Source of the DNA: a virus
Lineage: Duplodnaviria > Caudoviricetes
Reading direction: 5' to 3' (one strand)
IMG/VR virus record: IMGVR_UViG_3300001580_001418
Span: 30,081-94,080 of that record
Length of the DNA: 64,000 nucleotides
Shown one piece after another: positions 17,083-33,606 of this stretch; the stretch's first letter is position 1; the number at the start of each line of letters is the position of its first letter. The notes under the pieces are model-generated. The model saw nothing but the letters and a program-made list of their open reading frames with translations. It searched no databases and was not told the origin of the DNA. The translations under genes were made by a program, and so were the position numbers.

Positions 17083-17410
17083 TTAACATCTCCTTCTCTC
17101 TTGAGAGAATTGCATCAAGCACGTCTCGATTGGTTTCTTCCTGCCCAAGTCTATCCAGATCCTCAAGGCTCGCCGCAACCTTAACTTGGGCAAGCTTTCT
17201 CCGGATCCTCTTTCCTTCGTCAACATCAGCCGTAAGCTTGATTCGTTCCTTCTCCTTGTCGATAAGCTCCCTTACATCCAACACCCCGCTCATATCCTCG
17301 GTATAGCTTTGCCCAGGCTTCAAATGAATCGGGTTAAAATGCCTGTCGTAAAAAATCTGCGGCACCTTTGTTTCGTTCTTAAAAACTCTCGTCTTCGTCG
17401 TCATTTTCAT
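17054..17410 (-). CDS. Hypothetical protein
   Basis: ATGA-coupled ORF. Confidence 0.5.
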   Translation of the reverse strand: MKMTTKTRVFKNETKVPQIFYDRHFNPIHLKPGQSYTEDMSGVLDVRELIDKEKERIKLTADVDEGKRIRRKLAQVKVAASLEDLDRLGQEETNRDVLDAILSREKEMLNVENGRSEG

Positions 17411-18057
17411 GCCTCCTTTAATACGAAAATTTTGTTTCCGTGGGTTTCAAATATCTGTGTATATCCGAACCTGCCAAAGATTCCTCCATGTTCAATGGTT
17501 TCATCCAGGCACACCACTTCAAATCGGTGGTGCTCCAAAAGCGGCCCTTCCCTTTCAACCACAATGACCTTTGGTCTATAATTGCTCTTCTCGAAAAGGT
17601 TTTTTATTATCCTGTAATCCAGTCCTTCCGTGTCTACAGATAGCAAGTCAAGGTCTATTGGAATCCCTTCCTCCTCCAGGACATCGGATAATGTTCTTGT
17701 CATAATCTCCCCTTTTTCTTCAGATTCCTGCTCAAAAACCAAGGAATTGTGCCCCGGGGTTTTGTGTATATATGTCGTCGCAACTTCCCTCAAATCGGAT
17801 ACCGCAATATTCAGAATCTTGATGTTTTTTCTTTCTTTCACCGCCTCTCTCAACGGATCCCAAAAAACTTCAACGGGCATTGGCTCAATCAAAAGACCTC
17901 CCCAATTGCCGGACACAATCAAGTCGTAAGTGTTCGACAGCTCTATTCCGAAAGCCCCCACATCGACAAGCAATCTATATTTCGGGCGAACTTCCTCGAA
18001 GTACCTTCTCAAAAAATTCCCTTCTCCAAACTGGCTATGATCGATCTCATCCATCAC
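17407..18057 (-). CDS. FkbM-family SAM methyltransferase
   Basis: VDVGAFG..SNT...GLLIEP...NIAVSD...DLLSVDTEGLD..I...RPKVIVVE. Confidence 0.88.
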   Translation of the reverse strand: MMDEIDHSQFGEGNFLRRYFEEVRPKYRLLVDVGAFGIELSNTYDLIVSGNWGGLLIEPMPVEVFWDPLREAVKERKNIKILNIAVSDLREVATTYIHKTPGHNSLVFEQESEEKGEIMTRTLSDVLEEEGIPIDLDLLSVDTEGLDYRIIKNLFEKSNYRPKVIVVEREGPLLEHHRFEVVCLDETIEHGGIFGRFGYTQIFETHGNKIFVLKEA

Positions 18058-18566
18058 GCTTTCCTGATAACAATCTCGAAACTGTACTTATCCGCATGGG
18101 CACTCTCATAAATAATCGAATAGGAAACGCCCAAGGACGAAAGCACTCGCTTTACATAATCCAGGCTGAAATTTGAAACCTTGTGCGCCTCGTTATAACC
18201 TTGCCCCGTCAATTTACAGTGATCTCTATACTTCTGTTCTTCAGGACAATACAGGATCAAGGACCCACTCTGTTTGATGACCCTCAGCCATTCCCTCAAT
18301 ACCGGACCAGTCTCTCCTTCCGGGAAATCTTCAAGCAGATGGGACGAATAAACATAGTCCAGCACCCCATCTTTGAACCAATATAAATTCCTGGCATCTC
18401 CGTGGAGATTCTGGGGACTACTCCCAACCTCAGCATAAGGAATATCCAGGTCTACAGTAATTGCACTTGGGACAATCGGGTCTCCTCCAAACCCTATGTC
18501 CAACCCGTCTCCAAGACAAAACTTTTTAAGCCTCTCCCTGCAAATACTCGACTCGGATGGATACAC
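18054..18566 (-). CDS. Class I SAM methyltransferase (Methyltransf_11-like)
   Basis: GLDIGFGG...DYVYSSHLLED...LREWLRVIKQSGSLILYCP. Confidence 0.88.
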   Translation of the reverse strand: MYPSESSICRERLKKFCLGDGLDIGFGGDPIVPSAITVDLDIPYAEVGSSPQNLHGDARNLYWFKDGVLDYVYSSHLLEDFPEGETGPVLREWLRVIKQSGSLILYCPEEQKYRDHCKLTGQGYNEAHKVSNFSLDYVKRVLSSLGVSYSIIYESAHADKYSFEIVIRKA

Positions 18567-18579
18567 TGTTCACCCCTTC

Positions 18580-19617
18580 TTACATAAACGCAAACCTTTT
18601 GATTCCAATCTTTATTTCATCGATAATTTTATCGGTATCCGATTTCCTCAAACAGTCCACCGTACCTTTACACCGGGTCTGTCGTCCGAAGCAAGACTCA
18701 CAGCCAACCATCTCTGCCAGGTCGATCGAGTGATAATTTCTATGGTGAGCCATCTTCTCTTTGGCCCTCGTATGTCCAAACATGGCAATAATCGGAGTCT
18801 TCGTGCAGTGGGCAATCCATAAGGCACCACTATCCATCGTTATGGCAACGTCAGCACCATCTATAAGTGCAGCAGCCTCATGGAAGGTCGTCTGTCCGGC
18901 AAGATTGCAAATACCTTTTACTTTAATGTCTTGCTTGAAATTGTGGACCATAATCACCGAACAAACCTTCGATAGTTCGTCGGCTATCCTTATTACCTTC
19001 TCGAAAGGAAAGCTATTAAACCACATCGCTCCAGATAACTGCATAACAGCGACAGGCCTTCCATTTTCCCTACGCGTCTCAACGATCGTTTTCGCCCAGT
19101 TTTTTTCGACATCACTGTACGGGAGCGAGAAGATTGGTTCCTTCGGAACAGGCCAACCGACAAAATCGCAGTTAATATCCAGTCTGTGTTTATAGCTATA
19201 AGCGTTCCCAGCATGGTCCTTTTCAACAACTCCATCCAGGTAATATCCGACATCATAACGCTGAAACTGGACGCTATTTTTCCCGATCGATTTAACCAAA
19301 TCCCAATACTTAAAAAGGCTTAAAAACCCATCAGCGGTAGCAAACACCACCTTGCTCTCCGGATAGGCTTCCTTCAACGAATTGATAAGGGGAGTTAAAA
19401 CGAGGATGTCACCGAGCGCGTAGGTTCTCCACAGGCAAATACTGGCATCTGGATTCCGCCGCATGAATTCGTCAAGGCGTACCCCATCGGAAAGGCTCGG
19501 CAGATGAATGGATGCCACCGCCTCATCGTCAAAGCAAAAACGTGGAAACACGGTTACCGGCTCCATGCTTGGGAACCGATAAAATACTTCTACTACTTTC
19601 GACGTATTGAATCTCAT
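18580..19617 (-). CDS. GT9-family (heptosyltransferase-like) glycosyltransferase
   Basis: RTYALGDILVLTPLINSLKEAYP...AAALIDGADVAITMDSGALWIAH...IAMFGHT...CESC..C...C; ATG 19617 with GGAGG. Confidence 0.88.
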   Translation of the reverse strand: MRFNTSKVVEVFYRFPSMEPVTVFPRFCFDDEAVASIHLPSLSDGVRLDEFMRRNPDASICLWRTYALGDILVLTPLINSLKEAYPESKVVFATADGFLSLFKYWDLVKSIGKNSVQFQRYDVGYYLDGVVEKDHAGNAYSYKHRLDINCDFVGWPVPKEPIFSLPYSDVEKNWAKTIVETRRENGRPVAVMQLSGAMWFNSFPFEKVIRIADELSKVCSVIMVHNFKQDIKVKGICNLAGQTTFHEAAALIDGADVAITMDSGALWIAHCTKTPIIAMFGHTRAKEKMAHHRNYHSIDLAEMVGCESCFGRQTRCKGTVDCLRKSDTDKIIDEIKIGIKRFAFM

Positions 19618-19633
19618 CGTTACCTCCGCACTC

Positions 19634-19688
19634 AAAATAAGGAAGCAGGGCGAGCTGCAATCTAATTGCAACCTACAGCCCACCCTGC
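19634..19688 (-). terminator. Intrinsic terminator after the capsid gene
   Basis: GCAGGGTGGGCTG...CAGCTCGCCCTGC hairpin followed by TTCCTTATTTT on the minus strand. Confidence 0.6.
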
Positions 19689-19702: not shown

Positions 19703-20824
19703 TTACGATGAGCTCAATGTCACTGTTGCAAAGCAGTCGCCTTGCACACACTTTTTTGCGTACCGGCTCATCATGCCCCTGACAGGCTGCATGGTATTCG
19801 GGTCGATCAGGAGCGGAGTCGTGTACAGCGGTATATACGGAGCATAGACATACCCCGTGTCAAGCCAGGATCCTCCCTTGAACCCAAGGAGCATCTTGTT
19901 GGTCTGATACCAAGGGTGCTTATAAACGACGAACCTATTCTTCAGGACGCCGAATCTGTGGATGCCTACATTGAAAAGCGCATCATCGACCGTCTCTTCG
20001 AGTTTGAAGCCCTCGAGCTTTTCAAGACGGGTGCAGGTGTCCGAATCAGACACGATCCATGTGGCGTTCCGATACCTCTTTTTGAAAATGAGGTTATTCG
20101 CATCGATGATCGCATCATACAGGGTCGCCTTATAGATCTTCGGATCGATGTTGATCCACGGAGCAATAGCGGGCATATTGATGTTCCAGTTCACGTTCCC
20201 AGCGCTCGCATTCAAGGTCATGTCGTCGATGATGATCATATCGACTTCTCTGATGATTTCATCGCCAGTCACTGCCATCAGCTCGCTCTCGGCATCGAGT
20301 CCATGATAAGCTCGGAGATCCTGCTGGGCCTCAATCGTCCACTTTGCCTTCAGGGCCTTTTCTTCAGCGCTGATGTCAACGCTCGAAATGTGAAAATTAA
20401 TTTCAGCAATATCGCCAGTCTCAGGCGTCCTGTCAGCGTAGTTCTTTGCAAGGGCACCTGCCTGATCAAGGCGATCGTCAACAGCGATGCTCCCCTTTGC
20501 AGTCCCATACCTGAAATCCAAGAAGAAAGCCTTTCCGGTCGGTTGGGACATCGGCTGCACAGAACAAAGATTCTGAGCGATCAACTTCGGGAAGATCCGC
20601 CGAACCAATGGAAATGCAAACGTCGGGAACGCACCAACATTGGTGATCTGCGAAGTCTCCTGCAAATAATTCAGATACCATTCCATGTTCTCCAAGAGAA
20701 CCTCGGTCTGCAGACGTTTCTGCTTTCCAAGGGGAGACCCATCCTCAATGCCCTCGGTAAGATAAGCCCACTTCTTGGTCCTCTCAGCGTTTTCCTCGAT
20801 CAAATACTTCATTTTGGGGTCCAT
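19703..20824 (-). CDS. Major capsid protein, T4 gp23-like family
   Basis: FPLVRRIFPKLIA..LCSVQPMSQPTGKAF.LDFRY; LKAKWTIEAQQDLRAYHGLDAESEL; GYVYAPYIPL; RGMMSRYA; true start ATG 20824. Confidence 0.95.
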   Translation of the reverse strand: MDPKMKYLIEENAERTKKWAYLTEGIEDGSPLGKQKRLQTEVLLENMEWYLNYLQETSQITNVGAFPTFAFPLVRRIFPKLIAQNLCSVQPMSQPTGKAFFLDFRYGTAKGSIAVDDRLDQAGALAKNYADRTPETGDIAEINFHISSVDISAEEKALKAKWTIEAQQDLRAYHGLDAESELMAVTGDEIIREVDMIIIDDMTLNASAGNVNWNINMPAIAPWINIDPKIYKATLYDAIIDANNLIFKKRYRNATWIVSDSDTCTRLEKLEGFKLEETVDDALFNVGIHRFGVLKNRFVVYKHPWYQTNKMLLGFKGGSWLDTGYVYAPYIPLYTTPLLIDPNTMQPVRGMMSRYAKKCVQGDCFATVTLSSS

Positions 20825-20964: not shown

Positions 20965-22305
20965 TTATGCAGTGCCGGCAGCAGTCTTTTTCCGAGCGAC
21001 ATCTTCAGGAACACCAGCGATCTGTCTCTCTCGGATTTTCTTCGCATCCATTTCGGCATCATGCTTATCCTCGTCCAGAACCTCACCCTTTCCCTTCGGC
21101 TTCTCTTTCTTGGGGTCCAATTCCTCAACGAGTTTCTGGATCCGTCCCTCTTCTGCAACAACCTTCTTGTCTACTTCGTCAACGGTCTTGCAATCGGCAA
21201 GGGCTTCCACAAGAAGCTTCTCGTGCTTCTTGCCAGCAGTCACTTCCAGGATCCTCTTCTGAACCTTCTCCTTCTCAGTAACCGATTTCTTCTCGTTCTC
21301 CATCTGCTCTTTCAGGGCCTTGTTCTCGGTTTCAAGACCAGACACTTTCCCTTCGAGTTCGCCCATCCTCTCCGCTATTCCTTCTTCCTCATCACTCTCC
21401 AATGCCCCCTCGGGCATATAGGGCTTAATCAGTTTCCCGATTTCGACGAAGGTTCCCATCATCCCCTGAAATTCCTCAGAATTCTTCACTTCCTCGATCA
21501 CCTCTTTCTTGACCTCTTCCTTCTTTGCCTCAACTTCCTTCAAAATCCTGGCATCGAAGTCTTTCTGCATCGTCTCGCGAATCTCCTTCTCCTTCTTCTC
21601 CACAGATTCCTTGACGAGCTGCTCACAAAGGTCAGGATAAGCCTTCCTCAACTCCTCAATGTTTTTAATTTCCATACTCGATGAACCTCCTTTCGTTTTT
21701 TGTGTTTCGCAGATTTCCTGCTTGCAGCCATCACATGGACCGCATTCTAAAATGTTTACCACTTCCACTTGCTCAGTAACTTGAGTGACCACGGCATCTT
21801 TCGTCGACTGCCCAATCACAAAATCAAACGTCTTGAGCGTCAAATCCTCTTGAACAATGTCCGCCATCTTCCCTTGCCAGTTGCCCTTTAGAACAGAACC
21901 AAAGGCTCTACTCGAAAGTCCAATCCTGCCACCAGCTCGAATAATCTCCTGCAAATTTTTTCCGCCAGGCTCAGTATTTAAAACGGTCGCCTCTCCAAAA
22001 TAAACCTTTCTCCCCTCAAGGACCTGCTTCTCAATCCCGGTCAGCATGGCAGCGGTATTCTTGATCGTTGATTTCCCATCTCCTGGATGATCAGCTTCAC
22101 CATAAACGCTATTCTCCGCCATCATAGGTTTCAGCTTCTCTATTTCGCGGTCAAGAATATGCTCACGATACACACGACCGTTACCATTTATTTCGTCTGC
22201 AACCGTAAAAATTCCTTTCACTCGCATCCTGCCACCATTCTTTGCAGAAGCCTCTTCGAGAATGGTAAAGGCAACCGGCATCGTCTCGATCAATAGTTCT
22301 TTCAC
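20965..22305 (-). CDS. Prohead protease (T4 gp21/U9-like) fused to coiled-coil scaffold
   Basis: GIFTVADEINGNGRVY, GEADHP, IGLSSRAFGS, TFDFV; Glu/Lys-rich C-terminal half; GTG 22305 with AGGAGGTG. Confidence 0.92.
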   Translation of the reverse strand: MKELLIETMPVAFTILEEASAKNGGRMRVKGIFTVADEINGNGRVYREHILDREIEKLKPMMAENSVYGEADHPGDGKSTIKNTAAMLTGIEKQVLEGRKVYFGEATVLNTEPGGKNLQEIIRAGGRIGLSSRAFGSVLKGNWQGKMADIVQEDLTLKTFDFVIGQSTKDAVVTQVTEQVEVVNILECGPCDGCKQEICETQKTKGGSSSMEIKNIEELRKAYPDLCEQLVKESVEKKEKEIRETMQKDFDARILKEVEAKKEEVKKEVIEEVKNSEEFQGMMGTFVEIGKLIKPYMPEGALESDEEEGIAERMGELEGKVSGLETENKALKEQMENEKKSVTEKEKVQKRILEVTAGKKHEKLLVEALADCKTVDEVDKKVVAEEGRIQKLVEELDPKKEKPKGKGEVLDEDKHDAEMDAKKIRERQIAGVPEDVARKKTAAGTA

Positions 22306-22350: not shown

Positions 22351-22836
22351 TTAAAAAGCCAGCCCAATCGCTATACCAGCAATCACTGTGATTACCAGGC
22401 CAACCTTTTCCCAAAACACCTTTTTGTCCAACTGCTTCCGAAGCTTCTCATTCTGTTCGGAATATCGATCAGCCAACTTCTCCTCTGCCCTTGCCATCTC
22501 TTGGTAAAACTCCGCCCGCTCAACCTGGATCTTCCGTCTCTCCTCGCTAATCTCCAGAAGCGAATCCTTCATCTTTAGCTGTTCCTTGAGATTCGTTACC
22601 TCTTCTCTTAGATCGGCGTTCTCTTTTCGCAATAACGGAGCCTCTTTCCATGTTTGAAAGACCTCACCAGAGTCGCGCTGATCAGTCCAAACCCCATACT
22701 CAACGGGGCTTGGGCTTGGGGCAGACAGTGGCTGACTTGATGCCACTCTTGCGAAACTCAGTAACAATGCCATCAACAGAATCGGGAATAGTAATAGCTT
22801 CCCTCTCCTTCTTGTATTGGGCAATCCTCGTTTCAA
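22351..22836 (-). CDS. Spanin-like membrane coiled-coil protein
   Basis: N-terminal hydrophobic signal, coiled coil, C-terminal TM; overlaps the previous gene. Confidence 0.5.
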   Translation of the reverse strand: MKRGLPNTRRRGKLLLFPILLMALLLSFARVASSQPLSAPSPSPVEYGVWTDQRDSGEVFQTWKEAPLLRKENADLREEVTNLKEQLKMKDSLLEISEERRKIQVERAEFYQEMARAEEKLADRYSEQNEKLRKQLDKKVFWEKVGLVITVIAGIAIGLAF

Positions 22837-23098
22837 GGATACTGACCTCCTTCTGTTTCTTTTTTAGCCTATCGTTCAGGCTATTGATTTGATCCTCATA
22901 ATCTTTCTCTTTGGTTTGCCATATCGTCTCAAGCGAATCACGTTCACCCATTAATTGCTGAACGGTTGCCTTAGCCTCTTCCAGCTTTTTGTCAAGCTCT
23001 CTCGCGGACGCCCCACGACTCCAGACGTAATACCCGCCACCAACCAAAGTGCATACTATCACCACACCAATTATTACTTTCCACTTAAGAGGTATCAC
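22700..23098 (-). CDS. i-spanin (Rz)-like protein
   Basis: N-terminal TM plus coiled coil, downstream of endolysin. Confidence 0.6.
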   Translation of the reverse strand: MIPLKWKVIIGVVIVCTLVGGGYYVWSRGASARELDKKLEEAKATVQQLMGERDSLETIWQTKEKDYEDQINSLNDRLKKKQKEVSILETRIAQYKKEREAITIPDSVDGIVTEFRKSGIKSATVCPKPKPR

Positions 23099-23226
23099 TG
23101 TCCCTCCGTTTTCTTGTGGGCAATCTTATCCCACAGCTTTCCAAATAAAACCTTGAGCTGCTCTTTGTATTTATGCGCATATGCACCAGCAGCAAACGAA
23201 ACCACAATGATCACAATCGTCCTCAT
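23095..23226 (-). CDS. Small membrane protein (43 aa) in lysis cassette
   Basis: MRTIVIIVVSFAAGAYAHKYKEQLKVLFGKLWDKIAHKKTEGQ; translationally coupled on both sides. Confidence 0.55.
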   Translation of the reverse strand: MRTIVIIVVSFAAGAYAHKYKEQLKVLFGKLWDKIAHKKTEGQ

Positions 23227-23873
23227 ACGAATCCTCCTCCCTTGTAAAGCGGGACCCATCGATCAAGAATTTTTTCCACGTAATCCCTATTCTCTTCGAT
23301 CGCCCACGAAGCCCTTTTTGAAAAATGTTCGACATTGCAGATCCAACGTCCCCCGTCCTTTCCGTTTAAAACGGCCAGATCTTTATCCTTCAGAACCCAA
23401 CCATATCCACCGTTATAACCTGACAGCGAAAATCTCCAGCGATTATCGTCATCACGAGCAAACGAACAGCGATCGTGGAGCCACTTATCGTATTTGACCA
23501 GTGCCCGGATGGCCCACCTCACATCAAGCGGATTGTTATCCCCAAGGTCTGCCGGATATAATCGTGAAATCCAATCCGCCGTATCAGGCGTAAATTGAGC
23601 CAAACCTGATGCATAAACGCTCTTGGCATCTGGATTCCAACTGCTCTCCTGATGAATCTGCGCATAGAAAACTGTTCCATCTTGATCCAACCCCCAATGA
23701 TAGTTAACTTCAGCTCGTACCGTTCGCTTCAGGCGATACGCCAATGCCGGAATTCTCGGATCTCGAATTTCAATTGCTGGCTCAACCTTCGGAGTCGCCA
23801 CTTCCGGCGTCTCAATGGCAGGCTTACTACACCCCCAATAAAACACCAAGAATAACAGCGGCCATAACCGCAC
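23223..23873 (-). CDS. Endolysin, lytic transglycosylase (SLT) family, with N-terminal hydrophobic segment
   Basis: AQIHQESSWNPDAKS..ASGLAQFTPDTA...SGYNGGYG...ENRDYV; start uncertain (GTG 23873 proposed). Confidence 0.88.
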   Translation of the reverse strand: MRLWPLLFLVFYWGCSKPAIETPEVATPKVEPAIEIRDPRIPALAYRLKRTVRAEVNYHWGLDQDGTVFYAQIHQESSWNPDAKSVYASGLAQFTPDTADWISRLYPADLGDNNPLDVRWAIRALVKYDKWLHDRCSFARDDDNRWRFSLSGYNGGYGWVLKDKDLAVLNGKDGGRWICNVEHFSKRASWAIEENRDYVEKILDRWVPLYKGGGFV

Positions 23874-24150
23874 CCCGAAGGATGCACGCACCAATAAACT
23901 TTTGAGCATCAGGCACCTCATTCTTCTTATCCTCCGCAAGCAGAGCCGAGAGACTCATGTACGGGTACAGGGCCTTCACAACGATATGCCCAATCACTGC
24001 TCCAGCGATCCCCAGCATCAACTTATACAATGCAAGTCTGGCCGTACTCTGCGGTGCAGCGACAAACTGGAAAAGCAGGTAGAGCACCACCGTCAGAACG
24101 ATCAACCACTTCACAGTCAAAAAAGCCCTGACAATCGCATACTTCTTCAC
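23827..24150 (-). CDS. Holin (3 TM)
   Basis: Three hydrophobic segments, directly upstream of endolysin. Confidence 0.75.
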   Translation of the reverse strand: MKKYAIVRAFLTVKWLIVLTVVLYLLFQFVAAPQSTARLALYKLMLGIAGAVIGHIVVKALYPYMSLSALLAEDKKNEVPDAQKFIGACILRGAVMAAVILGVLLGV

Positions 24151-24275
24151 TCGCCACCACCCCCCATCTCCATATCGTAGGATTCTTTACAATCGGCTTT
24201 TATTGACTTCTTCTCGCTGTCGGTAAATTCCTCAGAATCGTCAACCATTTTGAGAATGTCATCTAAAATGCTCAT
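24147..24275 (-). CDS. Small acidic protein (42 aa)
   Basis: RBS GGAGGT, MSILDDILKMVDDSEEFTDSEKKSIKADCKESYDMEMGGGGE; GTGA-coupled to holin. Confidence 0.55.
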   Translation of the reverse strand: MSILDDILKMVDDSEEFTDSEKKSIKADCKESYDMEMGGGGE

Positions 24276-24278
24276 CTC

Positions 24279-25001
24279 TTACCTCCCCACTGGTCTTGCG
24301 GCAGTCTTAACCGCCGTGAGACCGGCACCAACGACCTGCGAACCCGCACCTTTTGCGGAACCCACGGCCTTACTTCCGCTTGCCTTTATTTGGCTGAACA
24401 CCGCATTCGCCCTCGCTTGCAAACTGATTGCAACGTGCATGGCAGCTCGAGATTCTTTCCCGGTAGAACCCTTCGCCTTGTTAACAGCAGCCCTTCTCAT
24501 TCCTTCAAGGGCACCGATCTTCTTGTTGGCTGAGAGTCCATTTGCGTCCAGCTTTCCCTGCTGAGCCTTCGGTATGTACGACTCGTTATACTTCTGGATA
24601 CCATGTTTCAAGACTTGCGTCTTATTGGCACCGCTCAGCTTACTATAATTTGCCGTGTCCAGCTTTCCTCGAGCATTATAGAATTCCCTTGCGTGAATCT
24701 TTTCGCCACCAACAGTGACCTTGTGGGCAGAGATGCCGGAACCACCGACACGTTCTTTACGAAACTTTTCCCAAAACTTTTTTTCGTTCGAAGTCATCGC
24801 ACGAGCCTTGGGAAGCTCGCCCCAACCTTTTCCTGTTGTCTTACCACTTTTGGCAGCACCACTCTTTCTACCACCGCCCAGCGAACCGCCCCTCATCCCC
24901 GGTCTTCCCTTGTGGCCCCAATTCCCACTTCCGGCGCCGCCTTCAAAGAGCCTCACCTTAACCTCAGAGACAATGCTCTTTACAAATTCCTGGTTGATCA
25001 T
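24279..25001 (-). CDS. Tagged basic protein (putative capsid-internal cargo 4)
   Basis: RLFE-GGAGSGNWGHKGRPGMRGGSL tag; Lys/Ala/Gly-rich. Confidence 0.7.
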   Translation of the reverse strand: MINQEFVKSIVSEVKVRLFEGGAGSGNWGHKGRPGMRGGSLGGGRKSGAAKSGKTTGKGWGELPKARAMTSNEKKFWEKFRKERVGGSGISAHKVTVGGEKIHAREFYNARGKLDTANYSKLSGANKTQVLKHGIQKYNESYIPKAQQGKLDANGLSANKKIGALEGMRRAAVNKAKGSTGKESRAAMHVAISLQARANAVFSQIKASGSKAVGSAKGAGSQVVGAGLTAVKTAARPVGR

Positions 25002-25015
25002 CTCTTATCTCCTTT

Positions 25016-25693
25016 TCAGTCAAAGAACAGCCGGCCCTTAATATCTTCAGCCCACTCTTTCGCAAGGAATTTGACTTGCTTCTCGAGCTCCCTACCCGTC
25101 GAAAGCCTTACTTCGTCGCCTACGACCGAATACGGAACCTCAAAATACTTCCCGTCGTCAGTCGAGACAAAAATCTTTTTTGGAAATGTGGACACAATAT
25201 CAGGATACTTCCCATAAAGCTGGCTATCCTTCAGGGCAGCATAAAGCTTGTCACGCAGATCCTCAAAGCTTCCCTTTATCCCACGAAGGCCATTACCTCC
25301 GACCGCAACAACTTCACCTTTTTGCTCTCCTATACCCATCTTTCTCCTCCTTTTCGACATCACTGACCCCCAACATTTTTCAGTCACTCTTGGGGCAATA
25401 TTGGCAATCATCGAAGTCTCCTTCACCTCTTTTTTTTCAGCCTTCCCGGGCTTAAACAGAATCGGCTTAATCTTATGCTTCTTGAGCCATGCCTTCGCCT
25501 GATCAACCGTGAACTTGTCCATCTCGAAACGATACGTCTGCGCAGTCATCGGACCATTGGGTCCATCTTTCTTCAACTTTCCGGTAATCAGATTAATCCC
25601 TGGCTTAATCTCGATCGTGGCCCACATGTCTTTGCCATCAAGAAACTCACCTGGATCCTTCACCCTGCCACTATGCCAATTTGCCAGAGGCAT
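25016..25693 (-). CDS. Head-associated hypothetical protein
   Basis: MPLANWHSGRVKDP...QTYRF....FT.DQAKAWLKKH; C-terminal GSFEDLRDKL...YFEVPYSVVGDEV; head module context. Confidence 0.6.
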   Translation of the reverse strand: MPLANWHSGRVKDPGEFLDGKDMWATIEIKPGINLITGKLKKDGPNGPMTAQTYRFEMDKFTVDQAKAWLKKHKIKPILFKPGKAEKKEVKETSMIANIAPRVTEKCWGSVMSKRRRKMGIGEQKGEVVAVGGNGLRGIKGSFEDLRDKLYAALKDSQLYGKYPDIVSTFPKKIFVSTDDGKYFEVPYSVVGDEVRLSTGRELEKQVKFLAKEWAEDIKGRLFFD

Positions 25694-25901
25694 TTTCCTC
25701 ACCCCCAAAATTGAACATTGCCTTCACCTCTAAGGGTTCGCACCACAACTCGAACTTCATCCTGCCAATAATCCCGTCATAAAGAGGCAACGTAATGTTT
25801 CCTTGCGCTCCACCTTCTGCAAGCTTTCGAATCGCAGCCAACGTCTCATCCAGAATCTGTTTCTTCTCTTCGGGTGTTTTATGCTCTTTCCTGAAGCCCA
25901 T
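25671..25901 (-). CDS. Small hypothetical protein
   Basis: RBS GGAGG; follows cargo 3. Confidence 0.55.
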   Translation of the reverse strand: MGFRKEHKTPEEKKQILDETLAAIRKLAEGGAQGNITLPLYDGIIGRMKFELWCEPLEVKAMFNFGGEENASGKLA

Positions 25902-25915
25902 TTTAGCCCTCCACC

Positions 25916-26248
25916 TTACCGATAAATTTTGCTAACAAGCTTTCGTCCCACAAAAATATTAACCAACCTCTTCAATATCTTTATTGGATTACCGGACGCA
26001 GCAACCTCAACATTTCGCATAGTCCGCGCAGCTCTCCAGAGCTTTCCGCTAAGCTTTGGAATCCGGATGCTTCCCCTCTCCCCTTTAAGAATTGCCCGGG
26101 CTATCGATCTACCCTTAGTCGGCAGGCTGCCTCCTCTTCTCCCCGGTCTTCCCTTGTGGCCCCAATTCCCACTTCCGGCGCCGCCTTCGAAAAGGTCTGC
26201 TAAAACACCAGAAGAAATATCTTTCACAATTGCGTAATTTTCAGACAT
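25916..26248 (-). CDS. Tagged Arg-rich protein (putative capsid-internal cargo 3)
   Basis: DLFE-GGAGSGNWGHKGRPGRRGGSL tag. Confidence 0.7.
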   Translation of the reverse strand: MSENYAIVKDISSGVLADLFEGGAGSGNWGHKGRPGRRGGSLPTKGRSIARAILKGERGSIRIPKLSGKLWRAARTMRNVEVAASGNPIKILKRLVNIFVGRKLVSKIYR

Positions 26249-26258
26249 AAAAATACCT

Positions 26259-26528
26259 CTACACGATCATCACGTCAGACGCGCGGAGATAAGGATTGTC
26301 ATAGCGAAACTTCAGCATCGATAAGAACTTCTCCCCATCCTTCGGGTAAAACTTCTTCACCTTTGGTTTCGTATAATCCTTAATGCCGTATTCAGTCAGT
26401 TCGTCAAGGATCTGCTTCGGCGTTTCACCAACCGCAATCATTTTCTTACCATTCCAAACAATCGACCCTACTGCTGTGTCCCTGTCACTCTTAAAGTCGT
26501 ACCCGTAGAAAACAACCTTTGCAGCCAT
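26259..26528 (-). CDS. Small protein, candidate kinase immunity factor
   Basis: Overlaps the 3' end of the kinase gene; RBS GGAGGG. Confidence 0.55.
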   Translation of the reverse strand: MAAKVVFYGYDFKSDRDTAVGSIVWNGKKMIAVGETPKQILDELTEYGIKDYTKPKVKKFYPKDGEKFLSMLKFRYDNPYLRASDVMIV

Positions 26529-27649
26529 CCTAATCCCTCCACTAAACCCTTCACTTTGTCCGGCGTATAGCCATGCTTTTCAGTCCATGGCTTGTGCCAC
26601 TCAAATCGTTCCTTCGGAAAATATTTCATGTTTACCAATTCGGCGGCTCTATCAAACGTCTTTTTCGCAAAAGACGGGTTACTCATCATCGAAGCCAGTC
26701 TCTTCTCGAGAGCCGGCCTATTCGAAAGCAATCTCTTGACGGCAGCTTTAACTTCCATCGGAATGGGCCTATCTTCCACCATCGGAATCGTTGACGATAC
26801 GATCTTATCAGACTTCCAGAACGTCAGCGCATTATCGATTGCCCACGTCTTACCGTTCTTGTCAACAACGTAATTCCCTGGATGCCTGTCTTGGTTTCCG
26901 ATGATAAAATCGAAAGCAGTGATCTTCGCCATATCGACATACTTAAACTTTCCACCCGCAGCAATATGCTTTGACCCAATCTGTCCTTCAACAAAGTGCA
27001 TCACACTGCCTTTCTCTTTCCCTTTGCCCCTTCCAACATCCACCTCTCTGTAAACAACAGGCGGAACAACACCAAAGCCAAGCATCTTGTCGAACTCGTA
27101 CGCAGCTACTTCCTTCCGCGCTCTGTTGTCCATCGTCTTAAAAACACCCTTACGTCCATCCACGTTCATGACAAAGGTCGGTGTGACTCCTCCGCCAAGA
27201 CTTTTCACGTTTGAAATAACACCAGTCGTAAGATCCTTCTGCACTTTCATCTGGATCTCAGTCTTAAGCCCTACAGATGAAGCCACGCTGCTGGCATTCA
27301 AGCCAACCTTCGTTGATGCAACCGCGCTACCACTACTCAGTCCAGCCTTCGTTAATGCCCTCTGGTATCGTCCTTCTGGCTGACCAGGATACTTGCTCTT
27401 AATATACGAGAGCGCCTGAGCAGAATCACCGATACCTTTACTCTTGATCTTCGTTGCCATTTCACGCGAATAAACTCGTTTCTCTCCGCCAACAACGTGA
27501 GCAGAAATTCCACCACTACCGCCACCACCACCCAACGAACCACCTTTCATTCCTGGACGCCCTTTGTGCCCCCAATTGCCTGAGCCTGGACCGCCTTCAA
27601 GAATTTCCGCAGACAAATCCTTTATCAGTGCATATTCAGCCAACAACAT
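26468..27649 (-). CDS. Tagged HipA/PI3-PI4-kinase-like protein (putative cargo 2)
   Basis: EILE-GGPGSGNWGHKGRPGMKGGSL; GVFK, KEVAAY..DKMLGFGVVPP, FDFIIGNQDRHPGN, AIDN kinase motifs; likely start 27649 or 27643. Confidence 0.82.
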   Translation of the reverse strand: MLLAEYALIKDLSAEILEGGPGSGNWGHKGRPGMKGGSLGGGGGSGGISAHVVGGEKRVYSREMATKIKSKGIGDSAQALSYIKSKYPGQPEGRYQRALTKAGLSSGSAVASTKVGLNASSVASSVGLKTEIQMKVQKDLTTGVISNVKSLGGGVTPTFVMNVDGRKGVFKTMDNRARKEVAAYEFDKMLGFGVVPPVVYREVDVGRGKGKEKGSVMHFVEGQIGSKHIAAGGKFKYVDMAKITAFDFIIGNQDRHPGNYVVDKNGKTWAIDNALTFWKSDKIVSSTIPMVEDRPIPMEVKAAVKRLLSNRPALEKRLASMMSNPSFAKKTFDRAAELVNMKYFPKERFEWHKPWTEKHGYTPDKVKGLVEGLGWLQRLFSTGTTLRVTGTQQ

Positions 27650-27893
27650 CAATCCCCATTTCCTCGAGCGTATCGACCACCGCATCGGGATAACCGGTCT
27701 CGCCGGGTTTAACCATTTTGGTCCCATCGACAGTGACGCTCCCAACTTCATCTGAAACCTTTAACGCCATGGCTTTACCATTTAAACCAGAAAACTTCGG
27801 ATTTTGAGAAACCAATCTTACGATATTTCCCTCAATCATTAAGACCACTATCGCTGTTCCATCGCTACTTATTCCGTACTTCATCCCTTTCAT
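27636..27893 (-). CDS. Small protein, candidate peptidase immunity factor
   Basis: ATGA-coupled to the MuF-peptidase gene. Confidence 0.55.
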   Translation of the reverse strand: MKGMKYGISSDGTAIVVLMIEGNIVRLVSQNPKFSGLNGKAMALKVSDEVGSVTVDGTKMVKPGETGYPDAVVDTLEEMGIDVVG

Positions 27894-29677
27894 GACACAA
27901 ACACCTTCTTGTAGATTTCGGCTATCTTCGGGGCCTTTCTCTCAAGTCTTCCTCTGTCAACTACGTACATTGCATAACCCTCAGCAAAACCTTCGCGCGG
28001 CTTAGAAGACCCATATCTCGTAATCTTTCCCTTACTGGCATTTGCTACCCAAACGGCGCGTACAACTCCAAATATCTCCGCAACGGAATGACCGAATTCA
28101 TGTAGAAACGTTGACTTTGAAACTCCACGTGCAAGCACTATCTCACCACTATTGCTATCATGGAATCCATCGACGCTTTTCCAAAGCTTACCACCAGCTC
28201 TCAGGTTGGCAAGGTCAGTAACCTCTGCCACTCCACTCAAAAAAGTTATGGCCCTTACCTCCGTCCCGACCAGGTGTTTCTCAGGCAACATAGCCAACGT
28301 CTCATGCACAAACTTCTTATCCGCATCACTTCCAGAAACAAGAAGTTTCTTTGAATCAAGAATCTTCTTGACCTTATCAGGCGTTAATCCATATCCACCC
28401 CTCTGCACTCTTGTGGCCGGGAAAATAACGACACCAGACTTTAGGAGCGCCCTCCCATATCTCTCCTGAGGCTGCCCAGGAAATTTATTTCTCAACACAG
28501 CTACCGCTTCGCCTAGACCAAACTTCTTACCCTGGCCTGCCATCTCACCCTTTAACCAATCGGCCATCTGACTTGATCCAATTGCCCCATGCCCAGCAAT
28601 ACCACCACCAGGGAGACTGCCACCACGCATCCCAGGACGACCCTTGTGCCCAAAATTACCAGAGCCGGGGCCGCCTTCGAGAAGCAATTCTTTTTTAACC
28701 TCTTCAACGATCGATTCAACAAACTTCGTTTTCTGAACTTGCCCGCCCGGCACATAATAAATCTTGTGCTTCTCCATGAAGTCGATCATATCGGCGTTCA
28801 GATCACGACGCATCCGAATCAGTTCCTTCTTCTGATCACCACTTGTGGCACTGATCATTCCTCTAAGTCGATCAATCTCGGATGACATTTGACCAAGTTT
28901 GTCACGTTCATTGTCAGACGGTAGGCGATAACCTTGAGGCGGGGCAACCAGCTTCGGACCTTTAATGACGTACAGTTCAGGCTTTGGCTTTTCCTCCGCA
29001 TACTCAAAACGGAGCTCGCACCTGCAATTAGAAAGACAGCGCGAAGTGCCATCTCTCGGGACGGCAGGCAATGTCTTTTTTGTATATGGGCCACCCGCAG
29101 CAAGTCTGATACAGTCATCACAATGCCTCGCCTCCCTTAAAATCCATCGAATCTTCACAAACTCAGGAGACCCATCAACCTTACCATGATGAAAAACACC
29201 ATCCAGCGTCTCTGTATACATGGACAGACGGTCTTCTATGCCCATGACCAATGCGTTCTTCTTAATGTCCTCGACGAATCTACCAAGGTATCCGAACTCT
29301 TCGGCCTCGGCACCTTTCAACCACGTCTTGTCCTGTTCCCAAATCCCGAATGGATTCCCAACAGACTTAATTCCTAATCCATAAGCCTTCTCCCAGGCAT
29401 CCTTAATCTCAGAATGCCACAGCGTCTCCATCACTTCAGCTGTGATTTCTCCCTTCTGATAAGAACCAAGAATACCGAACAGGGCATCCTTGAACTCTTC
29501 TTTTAAGCCGTCATAATCGGAGACAGCCTGTGCAATCATCTTCTTGTCCAGATTCGTACGCAGACTTCCTATCAACCTAACAAGCGTGGACATGAGAATC
29601 GCCTTCTCGTTGGCAAACGTTCTCCGGCCACCAAATGATTTGCCTTCTGTCAGGTTGCAAGCTAATTGCAAACTCAT
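27890..29677 (-). CDS. MuF/gpF-like minor head protein with internal tag and C-terminal zincin metallopeptidase (cargo 1)
   Basis: Directly after portal; HCDDC...P.VPRDG...CLSNCRC MuF-like motif; LLLE-GGPGSGNFGHKGRPGMRGGSL; TFLHEFGH...EGFAE. Confidence 0.8.
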   Translation of the reverse strand: MSLQLACNLTEGKSFGGRRTFANEKAILMSTLVRLIGSLRTNLDKKMIAQAVSDYDGLKEEFKDALFGILGSYQKGEITAEVMETLWHSEIKDAWEKAYGLGIKSVGNPFGIWEQDKTWLKGAEAEEFGYLGRFVEDIKKNALVMGIEDRLSMYTETLDGVFHHGKVDGSPEFVKIRWILREARHCDDCIRLAAGGPYTKKTLPAVPRDGTSRCLSNCRCELRFEYAEEKPKPELYVIKGPKLVAPPQGYRLPSDNERDKLGQMSSEIDRLRGMISATSGDQKKELIRMRRDLNADMIDFMEKHKIYYVPGGQVQKTKFVESIVEEVKKELLLEGGPGSGNFGHKGRPGMRGGSLPGGGIAGHGAIGSSQMADWLKGEMAGQGKKFGLGEAVAVLRNKFPGQPQERYGRALLKSGVVIFPATRVQRGGYGLTPDKVKKILDSKKLLVSGSDADKKFVHETLAMLPEKHLVGTEVRAITFLSGVAEVTDLANLRAGGKLWKSVDGFHDSNSGEIVLARGVSKSTFLHEFGHSVAEIFGVVRAVWVANASKGKITRYGSSKPREGFAEGYAMYVVDRGRLERKAPKIAEIYKKVFVS

Positions 29678-31245
29678 CTATTAATCTCCAGGTCCACCAA
29701 ATCCCTCAGCGTCTCGACAAGATTCATCATCTGCATCGTCACGATATGAAAACCATCGGATCGATTCAATCCGTTACTTCCATCTTCCTTCTGAGAAACC
29801 ATCGCCAAAGGATTCAAGCCACCTACTTGAGGGGTCGTCATTCCCGTCGCCCCGGCAGCCCTCAGTGACGGCGTTGTTGCTTTTTTAGGGGATGGTGAGG
29901 TAAGGGGTGCAGGTTTATCTTTTAATACGGCAGCAATTTCTTCATCGGGCAAGCCAAGAAAAGTCCGAAGAATGAACTCATCGCCAAGGATTTGCATATC
30001 AACCTTGTAAATCTTAGCAACCTCGGCCTTCAGCTTCTCCATTGTCCATTTCCGCATCTCGTCAACCATCGAGATCGGCTCAAAGCTAATTTCGTACAGT
30101 CCCTTCGTTGAAGCGATGCCTCGAAGTATCAGCTGATAATCGATGATCTGGATCAAACCCGTTCGTAACGCCTTCCGAATCCTTCCAACGGTCCGCGCAA
30201 ACTGAATGTCCTCTTCAACGATCGTGGCCTTCGCCTTCACGTCTTTCTCAAGGCCAACAAATGCCTTCGGGACCTTCAACCCTGCGAACAGCTTCGTCTG
30301 GAAATATTCCACGTCTCGGATGTTGCCAAGATTAGTTGCACCCTGCAGAACATTAACGTCAGCTTTCGATTCTTTCGTTACTCCGAGGAAAAAATCCTCT
30401 TCCGCAGACAGCGGGTTTTGGGTCGTTTCAAGCTGCCCCGTCACGGGGTTAACCATCCTCTTCTTCTTAAACTCTCTCTTTACGTCTTCGACATATGACT
30501 TTCTCTCTTCTCTGTCCAGACCATCAACATCAACCAAAATTTTATATCTCAGATGGGACCGCGTCAGCCGACCAATCACCATCCCATCTTCCATCATTTG
30601 CAGTTGCTTATAGACCCGGCGGATCGATTTCATCACGCTCTCGCCGTAAAGTTTCTTTTGCCCACCATTCCTCCAATGAACTATCTGCCATTTCTCGAAC
30701 TCAGCAACGCTAACGGTTCCGCTTTCATCCTTCTGTACGTATGGTTTTTCGGCATCACGACCATACTCATCCACTTCCCTGTGCATCATTGCCGGTTCAA
30801 GGGGCTTTAATCGGTCAATCCATCCTTCCGAATCAACAACCACCTCGTCGAACTCGTCTCCCATTTTGGATAAATTTCTTGCAGTATCCCAAATCGTCTC
30901 CTGGATCTTCGTCCTATCAAACAGCTCGTCTATAATGTTTTGGACTCTCGGGTTCTTACTCTTCACCTCAATTGCATTACCCGTCTTCCCTTTCTCCTTT
31001 GTTGCATTGTCAGCGTACAGGTCAAGGGCTGTCGAAATTTCAGGATACTCCTCGTCCATGATCAGGTAATCGATATATTTCGCTTTCCTCGTGCGCTCAA
31101 TCTTGATTTTCTTATAGTAGAGACTCGCAGCAAAGCTTTCGAAGCTGGTCTCGGTCGTCTCTTCCCTCTTCTTTGGTGGCGTGGCAAGTTTCGACAATGC
31201 CGCGCTTATCCTATCAATCAACGGGATGTTAATTTTTACTTCCAT
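29674..31245 (-). CDS. Portal protein, T4 gp20-like
   Basis: MDEEYPEISTALD, MEDGMVIGRLTRS..RYKILVDV, EEDFFL, LQGATNLGNIRDVEYFQTKLFAGLKVP. Confidence 0.93.
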   Translation of the reverse strand: MEVKINIPLIDRISAALSKLATPPKKREETTETSFESFAASLYYKKIKIERTRKAKYIDYLIMDEEYPEISTALDLYADNATKEKGKTGNAIEVKSKNPRVQNIIDELFDRTKIQETIWDTARNLSKMGDEFDEVVVDSEGWIDRLKPLEPAMMHREVDEYGRDAEKPYVQKDESGTVSVAEFEKWQIVHWRNGGQKKLYGESVMKSIRRVYKQLQMMEDGMVIGRLTRSHLRYKILVDVDGLDREERKSYVEDVKREFKKKRMVNPVTGQLETTQNPLSAEEDFFLGVTKESKADVNVLQGATNLGNIRDVEYFQTKLFAGLKVPKAFVGLEKDVKAKATIVEEDIQFARTVGRIRKALRTGLIQIIDYQLILRGIASTKGLYEISFEPISMVDEMRKWTMEKLKAEVAKIYKVDMQILGDEFILRTFLGLPDEEIAAVLKDKPAPLTSPSPKKATTPSLRAAGATGMTTPQVGGLNPLAMVSQKEDGSNGLNRSDGFHIVTMQMMNLVETLRDLVDLEINR

Positions 31246-31264
31246 ATCCAATCCTTTCAATCGT

Positions 31265-31644: not shown

Positions 31645-33606
31645 TCACTTCCCGAGTAACCATTTTGTCTCTTCCAACTTTCTTTTAATTTCATCATCAG
31701 CCGCAGATTCAGTAATCCCAAGGGACGGCGCAACGGGTTCTACCACCTTCTTCGTCTCGCAGTTATGGACCACTCCTGCAAGGCTATCCGCCATGTCCTT
31801 CGATCCACTCGGTCTGTGATCGACCTTCCCTTTTCGCTTATTCCATTCTAACTGCCTCAGCTCGTTCACCCCGACGGGATGCAAATATCCTTTTAGCCTT
31901 GTCTCATAGAGCGCCATCTTTAATCGGCTATAGGGCTGCGTGTTAACGTCAACACTCAACTCTTCAACATTCATGCCCTTATCTTTCAACTGCTGTTGCG
32001 TGTCTTTCGATTGGAAAGAGTCCATCGTTATCAAGGCAAACCTAAATCCCATCTCCTTCAGCTCAAAAATCAACTGCCTAATATCGCCCAGGATGATCTC
32101 TCCGGCGGGGGGCGGAACAATACGCAACCACAGATCGACATAAATCACGGGAAGCATTTCGACAAACGCTTCCCTTCTCGTTTTTGGTTCCAACGTTCCA
32201 GGTTCAATAATCTGTATCGTTCTCCAACGTGTCCTTTCCTCGTAATGGCTCGGGTGCCCCATACAAAACCCTGCCGCATCACCGCTGATCGAAGGGTCAA
32301 TATGGACATAGCGTCTCGTTTTGGGATTTACTTTCGGTCTCAAGCCTTCAAACTTCACTACCCCAAGTTCATCCACTTCCTTCACCCACTGGCACAACAC
32401 ATCTCTCAAAACATAGGCGCCGTCCCTCAGCGTCGTTTCGTAGGCGCTAAACGGATGCCTTCGATTATCCTCATACATTTTTGCAATCATATCCCTCTTC
32501 GTAATGAATGGTTCGATCGCAACGGTGGCCTTACCCGCAAGATCTCTCAGGGATCCTTCCATGTCAATTTCGAAGTCATGTCTGAACTCAATCGGGACCG
32601 CTATCTTTTCCTCTTCCTCTCCAAGCACTTCCTCGTCTTTCGGTATTCTTCCAAGGCCGGACTCTCTGTTGAAGAAGATGATGAACTTCTCTTCGCTATA
32701 AGTACCATCGGGCTTCGTGTCCCAAACAGCATAATTCCTTACAAACACGTTCTTGTGTCCTTGATACAGGGCCGCTTTCCTTTCCATAAAATCATCTGGG
32801 TACTGAGCGCTACTTAATGCCATGAGCTTCCCGGGCAAGTTCCCGAACCTCAAATAACGTGTCTCCATCCTTCGAAGCAGTGCAGTGAACACTACTTCAG
32901 CCTGGTCATAAAGCCTCTTCCCGCCACGGAGTCTTGCCGTCTGCGATCGCTCTACGATCGGCATAAAATTCGCCTCGTCCATGGCCGCAGCAAACGTATT
33001 CATACCAATAACCTGTGACTGCGTACATGCTGCCAGCAAGACATTGTTCGGAAATCTGAGCTCGGTTGCAAAATCCTGGTACGGGAAAACGGTTCTGAAA
33101 TACTCGCTTCCCTTAATCTTTCCTTTCAGTCCTTCAAAAATAACTCTCTTCGCTTGCGTGTGCGTCACCGACACGTTGGCAAAAAAGAGCTTGTCTTCCT
33201 TAACCATCCGATACGTCTTTTGGGGATTCTTTAAACACGAGACTTCATAAATAATTCTCGCAATCGCAATCTCGGAAAACGTTGACTTCCCCCAACCAAT
33301 AGACCCACCGAACAACCCAAGGAAGTATTCATTTCCTGGGTCAAAAAACTCGATGAGGTCATCCACAAGCTTAGGGTAAACCGTATCAATAATCCCAAGA
33401 TAGTACGGCTCCTTCAGAAACGTATACATATCTACTGGCTTCTCAATATAATCGATGCTTCTCAGGTCATCTTCGATCTTGCTCTTTCCAATCCCAACGT
33501 ACTCCTCGAGAGCTTTTATAAAAAGGTCTGCTTCTTCTGGACTCTTAAACCCACTTAACGCTTTTTCGATCAGCACAGGGTCAATCAATTTTTCTATCTC
33601 AGGCAT
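31645..33606 (-). CDS. terL: Terminase large subunit
   Basis: GGSIGWGKST Walker A, AAMDEANF Walker B, YVHIDPS RNase H-like motif, KVDHRPSGSKDMADSLAG. Confidence 0.93.
   Translation of the reverse strand: MPEIEKLIDPVLIEKALSGFKSPEEADLFIKALEEYVGIGKSKIEDDLRSIDYIEKPVDMYTFLKEPYYLGIIDTVYPKLVDDLIEFFDPGNEYFLGLFGGSIGWGKSTFSEIAIARIIYEVSCLKNPQKTYRMVKEDKLFFANVSVTHTQAKRVIFEGLKGKIKGSEYFRTVFPYQDFATELRFPNNVLLAACTQSQVIGMNTFAAAMDEANFMPIVERSQTARLRGGKRLYDQAEVVFTALLRRMETRYLRFGNLPGKLMALSSAQYPDDFMERKAALYQGHKNVFVRNYAVWDTKPDGTYSEEKFIIFFNRESGLGRIPKDEEVLGEEEEKIAVPIEFRHDFEIDMEGSLRDLAGKATVAIEPFITKRDMIAKMYEDNRRHPFSAYETTLRDGAYVLRDVLCQWVKEVDELGVVKFEGLRPKVNPKTRRYVHIDPSISGDAAGFCMGHPSHYEERTRWRTIQIIEPGTLEPKTRREAFVEMLPVIYVDLWLRIVPPPAGEIILGDIRQLIFELKEMGFRFALITMDSFQSKDTQQQLKDKGMNVEELSVDVNTQPYSRLKMALYETRLKGYLHPVGVNELRQLEWNKRKGKVDHRPSGSKDMADSLAGVVHNCETKKVVEPVAPSLGITESAADDEIKRKLEETKWLLGK

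Follow-up and report, generated by a model that had tools for sequence, protein, structure and literature searches.

The last 64 kb of the IMG/VR virus record IMGVR_UViG_3300001580_001418 (94,080 nt, estimated to be about 70% complete) form the stretch of DNA analysed here, which we refer to as the window. Between its genes for a T4-type portal protein and a gp21-type (S77) prohead protease lie four genes whose products all carry one Gly-rich tag of the form E-GG(A/P)GSGN(W/F)GHKGRPGxxGGSL. On balance, we favour the reading that these genes make up a cassette of effectors that would be loaded into the capsid, trimmed by the prohead protease and probably injected. A first-pass annotation had placed four tagged genes between the portal gene and the lysis and protease genes. 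This observation is confirmed, and the interpretation that accompanied it is partly supported.

Four copies of one tag in a gene cassette

A six-frame regular-expression scan recovered exactly four copies of the tag, all on the minus strand, and a tag profile found the same four copies and none besides across the whole record. Counted from the Glu through the Leu, the copies span 28613-28678, 27533-27598, 26123-26188 and 24879-24944. Eighteen columns are invariant across the four copies, and the repeated 22-aa motif cannot be attributed to chance. The copies and the mapped pre-tag segments are as follows.

28613-28675, minus strand: tag copy 1 (GGPGSGNFGHKGRPGMRGGSL), from the regular-expression scan and the profile
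27533-27595, minus strand: tag copy 2, from the regular-expression scan and the profile
26123-26185, minus strand: tag copy 3, in the 110-aa protein
24879-24941, minus strand: tag copy 4, in the 240-aa protein
28676-28726, minus strand: internal leader-like segment of the 595-aa protein, ending L-L-E, from alignments
27596-27649, minus strand: leader of the kinase, 18 aa, acidic, ending I-L-E, from the sequence

The residues immediately before the tags read LLLE, EILE, DLFE and RLFE. Three of the tagged genes open with leaders, which measure 18, 21 and 20 aa, and their start codons at 27649, 26248 and 25001 are preceded by plausible ribosome-binding sites. In the first gene the tag is internal, its Glu being residue 334 of a 595-aa protein. 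The leaders are acidic (isoelectric point, pI, 4.2-6.1), and the parts behind the tag are basic in all four proteins (pI 9.9-12.0). The leaders had been described as short and amphipathic; they are indeed short, and their low helical hydrophobic moment (0.10-0.40) speaks only weakly for amphipathicity.

Every gene in the cassette region lies on the minus strand. The array contains the four tagged genes expected from the first-pass annotation and also a fifth, untagged gene.

27890-29677, minus strand: 595-aa protein, first tagged gene, followed by an 85-aa open reading frame (ORF)
26468-27649, minus strand: 393-aa kinase, tagged, followed by an 89-aa ORF
25916-26248, minus strand: 110-aa basic protein (21-aa leader ending L-F-E, tag copy 3, 67-aa part of pI 12), followed by a 76-aa ORF
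25016-25708, minus strand: 230-aa protein, untagged here, fifth gene inside the array
24279-25001, minus strand: 240-aa basic protein (leader of 20 aa with L-F-E at its end, tag copy 4, then 198 Gly-rich residues of pI 10.8), followed by a 42-aa ORF

The two very basic proteins reported earlier among the cargo are thus present. In relatives, the counterpart of the 230-aa protein forms one reading frame with a leader, tag and basic domain (P0004, P0005; a 650-aa fusion in L002).

The residues before the tag follow the gp21 cleavage rule

The prohead protease and the major capsid protein are encoded downstream of the cassette.

20965-22305, minus strand: prohead protease (S77, gp21-type) with a long coiled-coil scaffold-like tail (Pfam Peptidase_S77, E=6.8e-15; phrog_207)
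19703-20824, minus strand: gp23-type major capsid protein (Pfam Gp23, E=4e-60)

The protease matches Pfam PF03420 (Peptidase_S77) with 55.5 bits against a cut-off of 27, and in the alignment with Krischvirus gp21 an N-terminal LLIE, His73 and Ser131/132 are invariant. Judged from these sequence features, it is a true relative of gp21. In the capsid protein, an L-x-E site stands just before a conserved ITNVG block in all three relatives compared. The T4 protease gp21 cleaves after the Glu of L/I-X-E and removes the 10-residue capsid targeting sequence of the T4 internal proteins, in which residues 8 and 10 govern processing (PMC9026906).

Ten loci that share the portal type of the window were grouped as a T4-like clade. 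Across this clade Glu precedes all of the distinct tags (32/32), with Leu or Ile two residues earlier (P3) in 30/32 and Phe in 2. This pattern is the T4 gp21 cleavage rule, and the earlier proposal of a gp21-type cleavage motif before the tag is upheld, a true S77 protease being present. The ten loci include L064, a distant and complete 92.8-kb genome with an S77 protease, whose leaders are unrelated to those of the window.

Selection acts on the peptide rather than the DNA

In five of the six pairs of tag copies, only 1-5 of 14-15 degenerate codons are common to the copies, 2-3 residues differ and the longest exact DNA runs are 8-11 nt. Synonymous sites are saturated in these pairs, and therefore selection acts on the peptide, not on the DNA. 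The copies at 26123-26188 and 24879-24944, in the genes for the 110-aa and 240-aa proteins, have an exact run of 49 nt in common, which points to a recent exchange between these two genes.

This run bears on the proposal that the repeat is mainly a DNA-level recombination hook for cargo swapping and that the peptide has no role. Such a hook would also suit the differing cargo content of close relatives, which have four to seven tags each, and the 230-aa gene, whose fusion at the leader is present in some relatives and absent in others. The short runs and few common codons of the other five pairs argue against it, as does the preservation of the peptide across phage lineages without DNA similarity. 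We consider the proposal extremely unlikely; as the main function it is largely refuted by the saturation of synonymous sites, and an occasional side effect may remain.

A second junction motif, G-G-I-S-A-H-(K/V)-V, follows the post-tag Gly run at 27511, 24737 and 28603 (minus strand) and is also found in L002, L008 and L056. It recurs within basic proteins of the clade, twice per protein in some, and may be a further mark of module boundaries. In a 181-kb relative (L001:14762-15945), the leader and tag are in one frame, the GISAH segment in a second and the kinase in a third; this locus is either a broken gene or an assembly frameshift in a run of Gly codons. Small ORFs in L001 that contain only the tag were rejected as genuine genes, as they are probably frameshift artefacts with the expected continuation in another frame.

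The tag is widespread and its flank is lineage-specific

The tag is not confined to this phage: it is a widespread element of head modules and mostly serves as a separator inside giant polyproteins. A profile built from 12 tags and run against 1.84 billion representative proteins retrieved 3,822 protein clusters at E<=0.001, of which 62 reached E<=1e-30. The best matches have lengths of 1,000-3,000 residues and contain as many as 10 tags, between which lie modules of roughly 150-300 residues. Pfam matches are few among these modules and include ParB and GNAT domains. Tag loci number 58 in IMG/VR and 33 in bacterial or archaeal assemblies, mostly from Clostridia and also from Proteobacteria, Acidobacteria, Elusimicrobia and Chloroflexi. 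Prophages of Clostridiales bacterium CCNA10 and Oxalobacter paraformigenes HOxBLS are among the tag bearers. One tag (L077) lies on a 4.3-kb contig binned with a Methanomassiliicoccales metagenome-assembled genome; the contig is short and mis-binning is likely.

Two layouts occur, with the tags either strung along giant proteins or placed near the N-terminus of consecutive genes, as in the window. The link between tag and head modules that was suggested from the window alone extends to every lineage annotated, in which tagged genes adjoin terminase, portal, MuF, protease or capsid genes. Domains behind the tags in relatives and other lineages include GNAT, a DRAT-like ADP-ribosyltransferase, a Zeta toxin kinase and a weak match to CdiA_C.

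No earlier description of the tag was found in the literature or in family libraries. Searches of 8.4 million full texts for motif strings, and for 'GRPG' together with 'phage', returned nothing relevant, and Pfam, PHROGs and NCBIfam hold no model of it. A tblastn search of GenBank phages with a typed consensus tag and a four-tag protein gave no match, and the low-complexity filter probably masks the tag in such a search, which makes the result weak evidence on cultured phages.

In 87 of 106 proteins that have three or more tags, all copies are preceded by the same residue, which varies between proteins (Lys, Leu, Arg, Asn or Glu). Head proteases were sought in 33 tag-bearing records. S77 was present in three, all of the [LI]xE type, and the S78 (HK97-type) protease in none (0/33). 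A strong match to the DUF2213 head protease was found in 15 records, in which Asp precedes 30/30 tags. Four records have a divergent DUF2213; here Leu or Ala precedes 22/25 tags, usually with Arg or Lys two residues earlier. In three Leu/Ala records the DUF2213 domain lies inside the tagged polyprotein (L042, 973 aa; L046, 1,290 aa; L058, 1,935 aa), and the protease of this lineage would itself be a module released at tags. For the Lys-, Arg- and Asn-type lineages, a Pfam scan of neighbouring genes yielded no protease.

The pre-tag residue thus changes with the resident head protease, from Glu with S77 to Asp with DUF2213 and to Leu or Ala with divergent DUF2213. Such a pattern is to be expected if the flank forms the P-side for the resident head protease and the tag supplies a shared P'-side.

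The tag could alternatively be an uncleaved flexible hinge, or a peptide that binds DNA, portal or scaffold, tethering modules, with the pre-tag residue as part of the binding motif. About 20 invariant residues, far beyond the needs of a protease, would fit this, as would the basic cargo and the predicted disorder of the tag (copy 2 has a predicted local distance difference test score, pLDDT, of ~27 in the kinase model). The GRP core presumably resembles AT-hooks. However, the general consensus (GGPGSGNFGHAGRPGEVGGS) is nearly neutral in net charge, a poor basis for DNA binding, and the flank in the S77 clade equals the known gp21 rule. A common partner would also not explain a pre-tag residue that switches by lineage between Glu, Asp, Leu/Ala, Lys, Arg and Asn under a constant tag. 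We regard a hinge or binding peptide as unlikely.

Domains of the cargo proteins

The tagged proteins with enzymatic domains are divided as follows.

28718-29677, minus strand: N-terminal carrier domain of the 595-aa protein, MuF-like by position and C-x-x-NCRC motif only (phrog_24776, E=1e-6)
28430-28576, minus strand: small helical module (motif PGQPxxRYxRAL) that also occurs in the kinase and in GNAT-like cargo of L001
27893-28378, minus strand: C-terminal zinc metallopeptidase domain with HExxH, M34-like fold (lethal factor / Pro-Pro endopeptidase)
26615-27253, minus strand: kinase core of the 393-aa protein, like type II PI4-kinases (Pfam PI3_PI4_kinase)

The first tagged gene had been called MuF-like. 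Only its position and motif agree with this, and MuF homology is no more than weakly supported. A Pfam scan of the carrier domain at E<=0.1 gave no match, and hhalign against a verified MuF protein (L036, PF04233, 57.7 bits) aligned 13 columns, covering only the CxxNCRC motif, with a probability of 37%. BLASTP and hhalign together showed no clear homology for this gene; the protein atlas gave as a lead PF04233 in 27% of the members of one cluster. In a provirus relative (L007:7709-11530), an intein (Intein_splicing) that includes a DUF559 endonuclease lies within the homologue of the 595-aa protein.

With the tag included, the 595-aa protein and the kinase share 43% identity over 102 aa (BLASTP), and matches extend to other cargo proteins. 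The helical module within this region forms three helices in the predicted models of both.

The HExxH metallopeptidase noted earlier is borne out as a domain with an M34-like fold. Its model, comprising the C-terminal 160 residues, has a pLDDT of 84.4 and matches PPEP-3 in Foldseek (E=7.6e-6). In VIA it scores Z 14.0 against the catalytic domain of anthrax lethal factor (1yqy; 160 aa, root-mean-square deviation 3.2), and Z 12.7 and 12.5 against the Pro-Pro endopeptidases 9g0j and 6fpc. Residues H167, E168, H171, E203, E207 and Y209 are invariant in an alignment of eight sequences, and the domain shows the M34 pattern of HExxH, a downstream Glu ligand and a catalytic Tyr. Since no Pfam or NCBIfam family reaches threshold, the domain is M34-like by structure only.

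The placement of this peptidase directly behind tag 1 raises the possibility that the tag is the site of a dedicated processing peptidase, here the M34-like enzyme, or of a host protease after injection. Metallopeptidase domains have been proposed to process polyvalent proteins (PMC5512222), and the closest solved relatives of the enzyme cleave at prolines, which the tag conserves. Yet the domain has five homologues in 5.8 billion proteins and occurs in 3 of the 58 loci (L001, L002 and L008), compared with 3,822 clusters for the tag, and the lineage-specific flank tracks the family of the prohead protease. We find such a processing site quite improbable, and the HExxH peptidase is ruled out as a universal processor, being confined to this clade.

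The kinase matches Pfam PI3_PI4_kinase with 28.8 bits against a cut-off of 27.1, at residues 268-324 of the long ORF. The catalytic loop DRHxxN is present, with D254, R255, H256, N259 and D272 invariant. A HipA/PI3K-like kinase had been proposed; the kinase part stands, but HipA is not the best fit. The closest proteins are type II PI4-kinases (VIA Z 16.8 to 4pla, PI4KII alpha, versus Z 9.4-10.2 for HipA chains; best Foldseek match 4hnd), and the Pfam and NCBIfam output contains no HipA family for this protein.

Small ORFs behind the cargo genes

A small ORF follows each tagged gene directly, in the positions given by the first-pass annotation.

27636-27893, minus strand: 85-aa acidic ORF, after the peptidase domain in all relatives
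26259-26528, minus strand: 89-aa ORF, overlapping the 3' end of the kinase gene and after the kinase in relatives
25671-25901, minus strand: 76-aa ORF, after the 110-aa protein in relatives
24147-24275, minus strand: 42-aa acidic ORF, with an ORF of the same size in the same place in L002

By synteny, the 85-aa ORF stands behind the peptidase domain in L001, L002 and L008, even when a gene of its own encodes the peptidase. A match between the 85-aa and 89-aa proteins (E=9e-7 over 32 residues) identifies them as paralogues, and the catalytic folds of their partners are unrelated.

These ORFs could make the cassette a polymorphic toxin/immunity array, as the first-pass annotation proposed, in which they encode specific immunity proteins and the enzymes act as toxins on competing bacteria or on the infected cell. 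They stay with their upstream partners across relatives, even where the peptidase has split off, and the phage has an integrase. A Zeta toxin and the weak CdiA_C match stand behind tags in another lineage, and genes for MuF toxins are usually followed by small ORFs (PMC5576092). Specific immunity is, however, made less likely by paralogous ORFs behind unrelated catalytic folds, and small ORFs also stand behind the non-enzymatic basic proteins. The two enzymatic partners share the helical module, a possible binding site for small chaperone or adaptor proteins, and such a common role for the 85-aa and 89-aa proteins would fit at least as well as specific immunity. Nor do family searches favour the idea, with no small ORF matching a Pfam family above cut-off and the 89-aa ORF finding only sub-threshold matches in the protein atlas. 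We think a toxin/immunity array improbable.

Gene order and head-module setting

The gene order is large terminase, T4-type portal, cargo cassette, lysis-like block, S77 protease and gp23-type capsid. The genes around the cassette, besides those for the protease and capsid, and the integrase are listed here.

31645-33606, minus strand: large terminase
29674-31260, minus strand: T4-type portal protein (gp20-like), upstream end of the cargo cassette (Pfam Portal_T4, E=7e-55)
22351-24150, minus strand: lysis-like block with a holin-like protein, an SLT transglycosylase and two coiled-coil membrane proteins
about 63230-63697, plus strand: tyrosine integrase (PF00589, 89 bits), near the end of the record

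Because the record contains a tyrosine integrase, a temperate lifestyle, as proposed earlier, is reasonable. A T4-type head and a temperate lifestyle are an unusual pairing; the record of the relative L007 is classed as a provirus. The portal ORFs of two relatives (L008:1423-5100 and L009:6505-9042) have 1,225 and 846 aa versus 528 aa in the window, suggestive of inserted or fused segments. At 17407-19683 (minus strand), immediately behind the major capsid gene, are genes for a family-9 glycosyltransferase and two methyltransferases (Methyltransf_11 and FkbM type). A glycosyltransferase and an FkbM-type methyltransferase are likewise found downstream of the capsid gene in L002, and the block may modify a virion component.

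Comparison with known systems

The arrangement would work like the T4 internal proteins with their capsid targeting sequence and like polyvalent proteins, and it overlaps with the MuF polymorphic toxins. The T4 internal proteins (IPI-III, Alt) go with the same set of head genes, namely a gp20-type portal, an S77 protease and a gp23-type capsid, and likewise have a short N-terminal propeptide ending in L/I-x-E and basic, variable cargo that includes enzymes. T4 Alt is an injected ADP-ribosyltransferase, and DRAT-like domains stand behind tags in relatives of this phage. The leaders may resemble the capsid targeting sequences of the T4 internal proteins; at 18-21 aa they are longer than the 10 residues of T4. 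In T4 cargo nothing conserved follows the cut, in contrast to the invariant 21-residue tag found here. Also unlike T4, the cargo genes are clustered between portal and protease and each is paired with a small ORF, and the phage encodes an integrase.

Polyvalent proteins (Iyer, Burroughs, Anand, de Souza, Aravind 2017, PMC5512222) are strings of effector-type domains in head-module proteins, often with MuF. Their domains (ParB, GNAT, ADP-ribosyltransferase, peptidase, kinase) are thought to be delivered with the DNA and processed (PMC5512222). A metallopeptidase was proposed as the processor of those proteins, whereas here each cargo has its own tagged gene and the flank suggests the prohead protease in that role. 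Scanned against Pfam at E<=0.1, the 595-aa protein matched no family, the zincin-like MPTase-PolyVal domain included. The window proteins have only two parts, compared with 5-10 modules in relatives and other tag bearers. The words 'linker' and 'glycine' are absent from the text of PMC5512222, and the tag is not described there.

MuF polymorphic toxins (Jamet et al. 2017, PMC5576092) are likewise encoded in temperate phages by a gene after the portal, with a C-terminal enzyme domain and then a small ORF. In the present case, by contrast, MuF homology is only putative, and it concerns the first tagged gene alone, as the other three lack a MuF part; neither a tag nor cleavage came up in a term search of that paper. 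In phiKZ-like giant phages (201phi2-1, phiKZ, SPN3US), an S77-family protease likewise cleaves many internal head proteins after Glu and removes propeptides. Their motif, S/A-x-E, has no further determinants, and no conserved downstream tag is reported for them, unlike the situation here.

A model for the tagged cargo

In the model that we prefer, a temperate phage with a T4-type head would use the stretch as a cassette for cargo proteins housed inside the head. At the start of each cargo would stand a short acidic leader ending in (Leu/Ile)-x-Glu or, in two cases, a carrier domain in its place, followed by the invariant, disordered 21-residue Gly-rich tag. During prohead maturation the resident gp21-type (S77) protease would most likely cleave after the Glu, stripping off the leader or releasing the cargo from its carrier, so that every basic cargo would then bear a common GG(A/P)GSGN... 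N-terminus. The cargo set would comprise the zinc peptidase, the PI4KII-like kinase and the two very basic proteins. Once trimmed, these proteins would be retained in the DNA-filled head and would probably enter the host alongside the DNA. The anatomy of the cassette, selection on the peptide, its head-module setting, its distribution and the tie between pre-tag residue and protease family are observed; packaging, the exact cut and injection are the steps that we infer. In other lineages the tag would part the domains of giant head-module polyproteins, and the residues before it would follow the specificity of their own head protease. Beyond marking an accessible cut site, the tag may serve in docking of the protease, or in retention or exit after cleavage. 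The cargo types found behind tags (zinc peptidase, kinase, GNAT, DRAT-like, Zeta) are host-modifying enzyme types, which supports the effector reading.

Several points weigh against this model. A protease site needs few residues, so cleavage alone leaves 20 invariant residues unexplained, and the known substrates of T4 gp21 carry no such tag. In the lineage of L021, L026 and L059, [LI]xE stands before the tags and S77 is undetected in near-complete genomes; a targeted look for a hidden copy in the L026/L059 lineage found nothing. The association between flank and protease is confounded with phylogeny, each class being essentially one clade. The head module of the window is split, as the lysis genes (holin-like, SLT) separate the cargo cassette from the protease.

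A broader proposal, possible and in our judgement rather doubtful, is that tailed phages share the 21-residue tag, GGxGSGN(F/W)GHxGRPGxxGGS, as a universal and portable signal, preserved across lineages with different head proteases because it provides something that every capsid cargo needs. The tag would then dock on the assemblin-type fold shared by prohead proteases, or would alternatively provide, after cleavage, a flexible N-terminal end that starts the exit through portal and tail. The few pre-tag residues would carry the lineage's own cleavage code.

If the tag is such a universal signal, leader and tag would be a general handle by which proteins are loaded into phage heads and delivered into bacteria. 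Phages are known to inject proteins together with their DNA, yet a sequence rule that identifies head-loaded proteins exists only for T4 and a handful of giant phages; the tag would supply one for others. Capsid cargo, including kinases, peptidases, acetyltransferases, ADP-ribosyltransferases and Zeta-type kinases, would become readable straight from metagenomes, and the idea of polyvalent proteins would be tied to a concrete processing code. The link between flank and protease predicts the specificity of DUF2213-type head proteases, namely cleavage after Asp. In the laboratory, the tag would also serve as a compact handle by which foreign proteins are packaged into phage particles.

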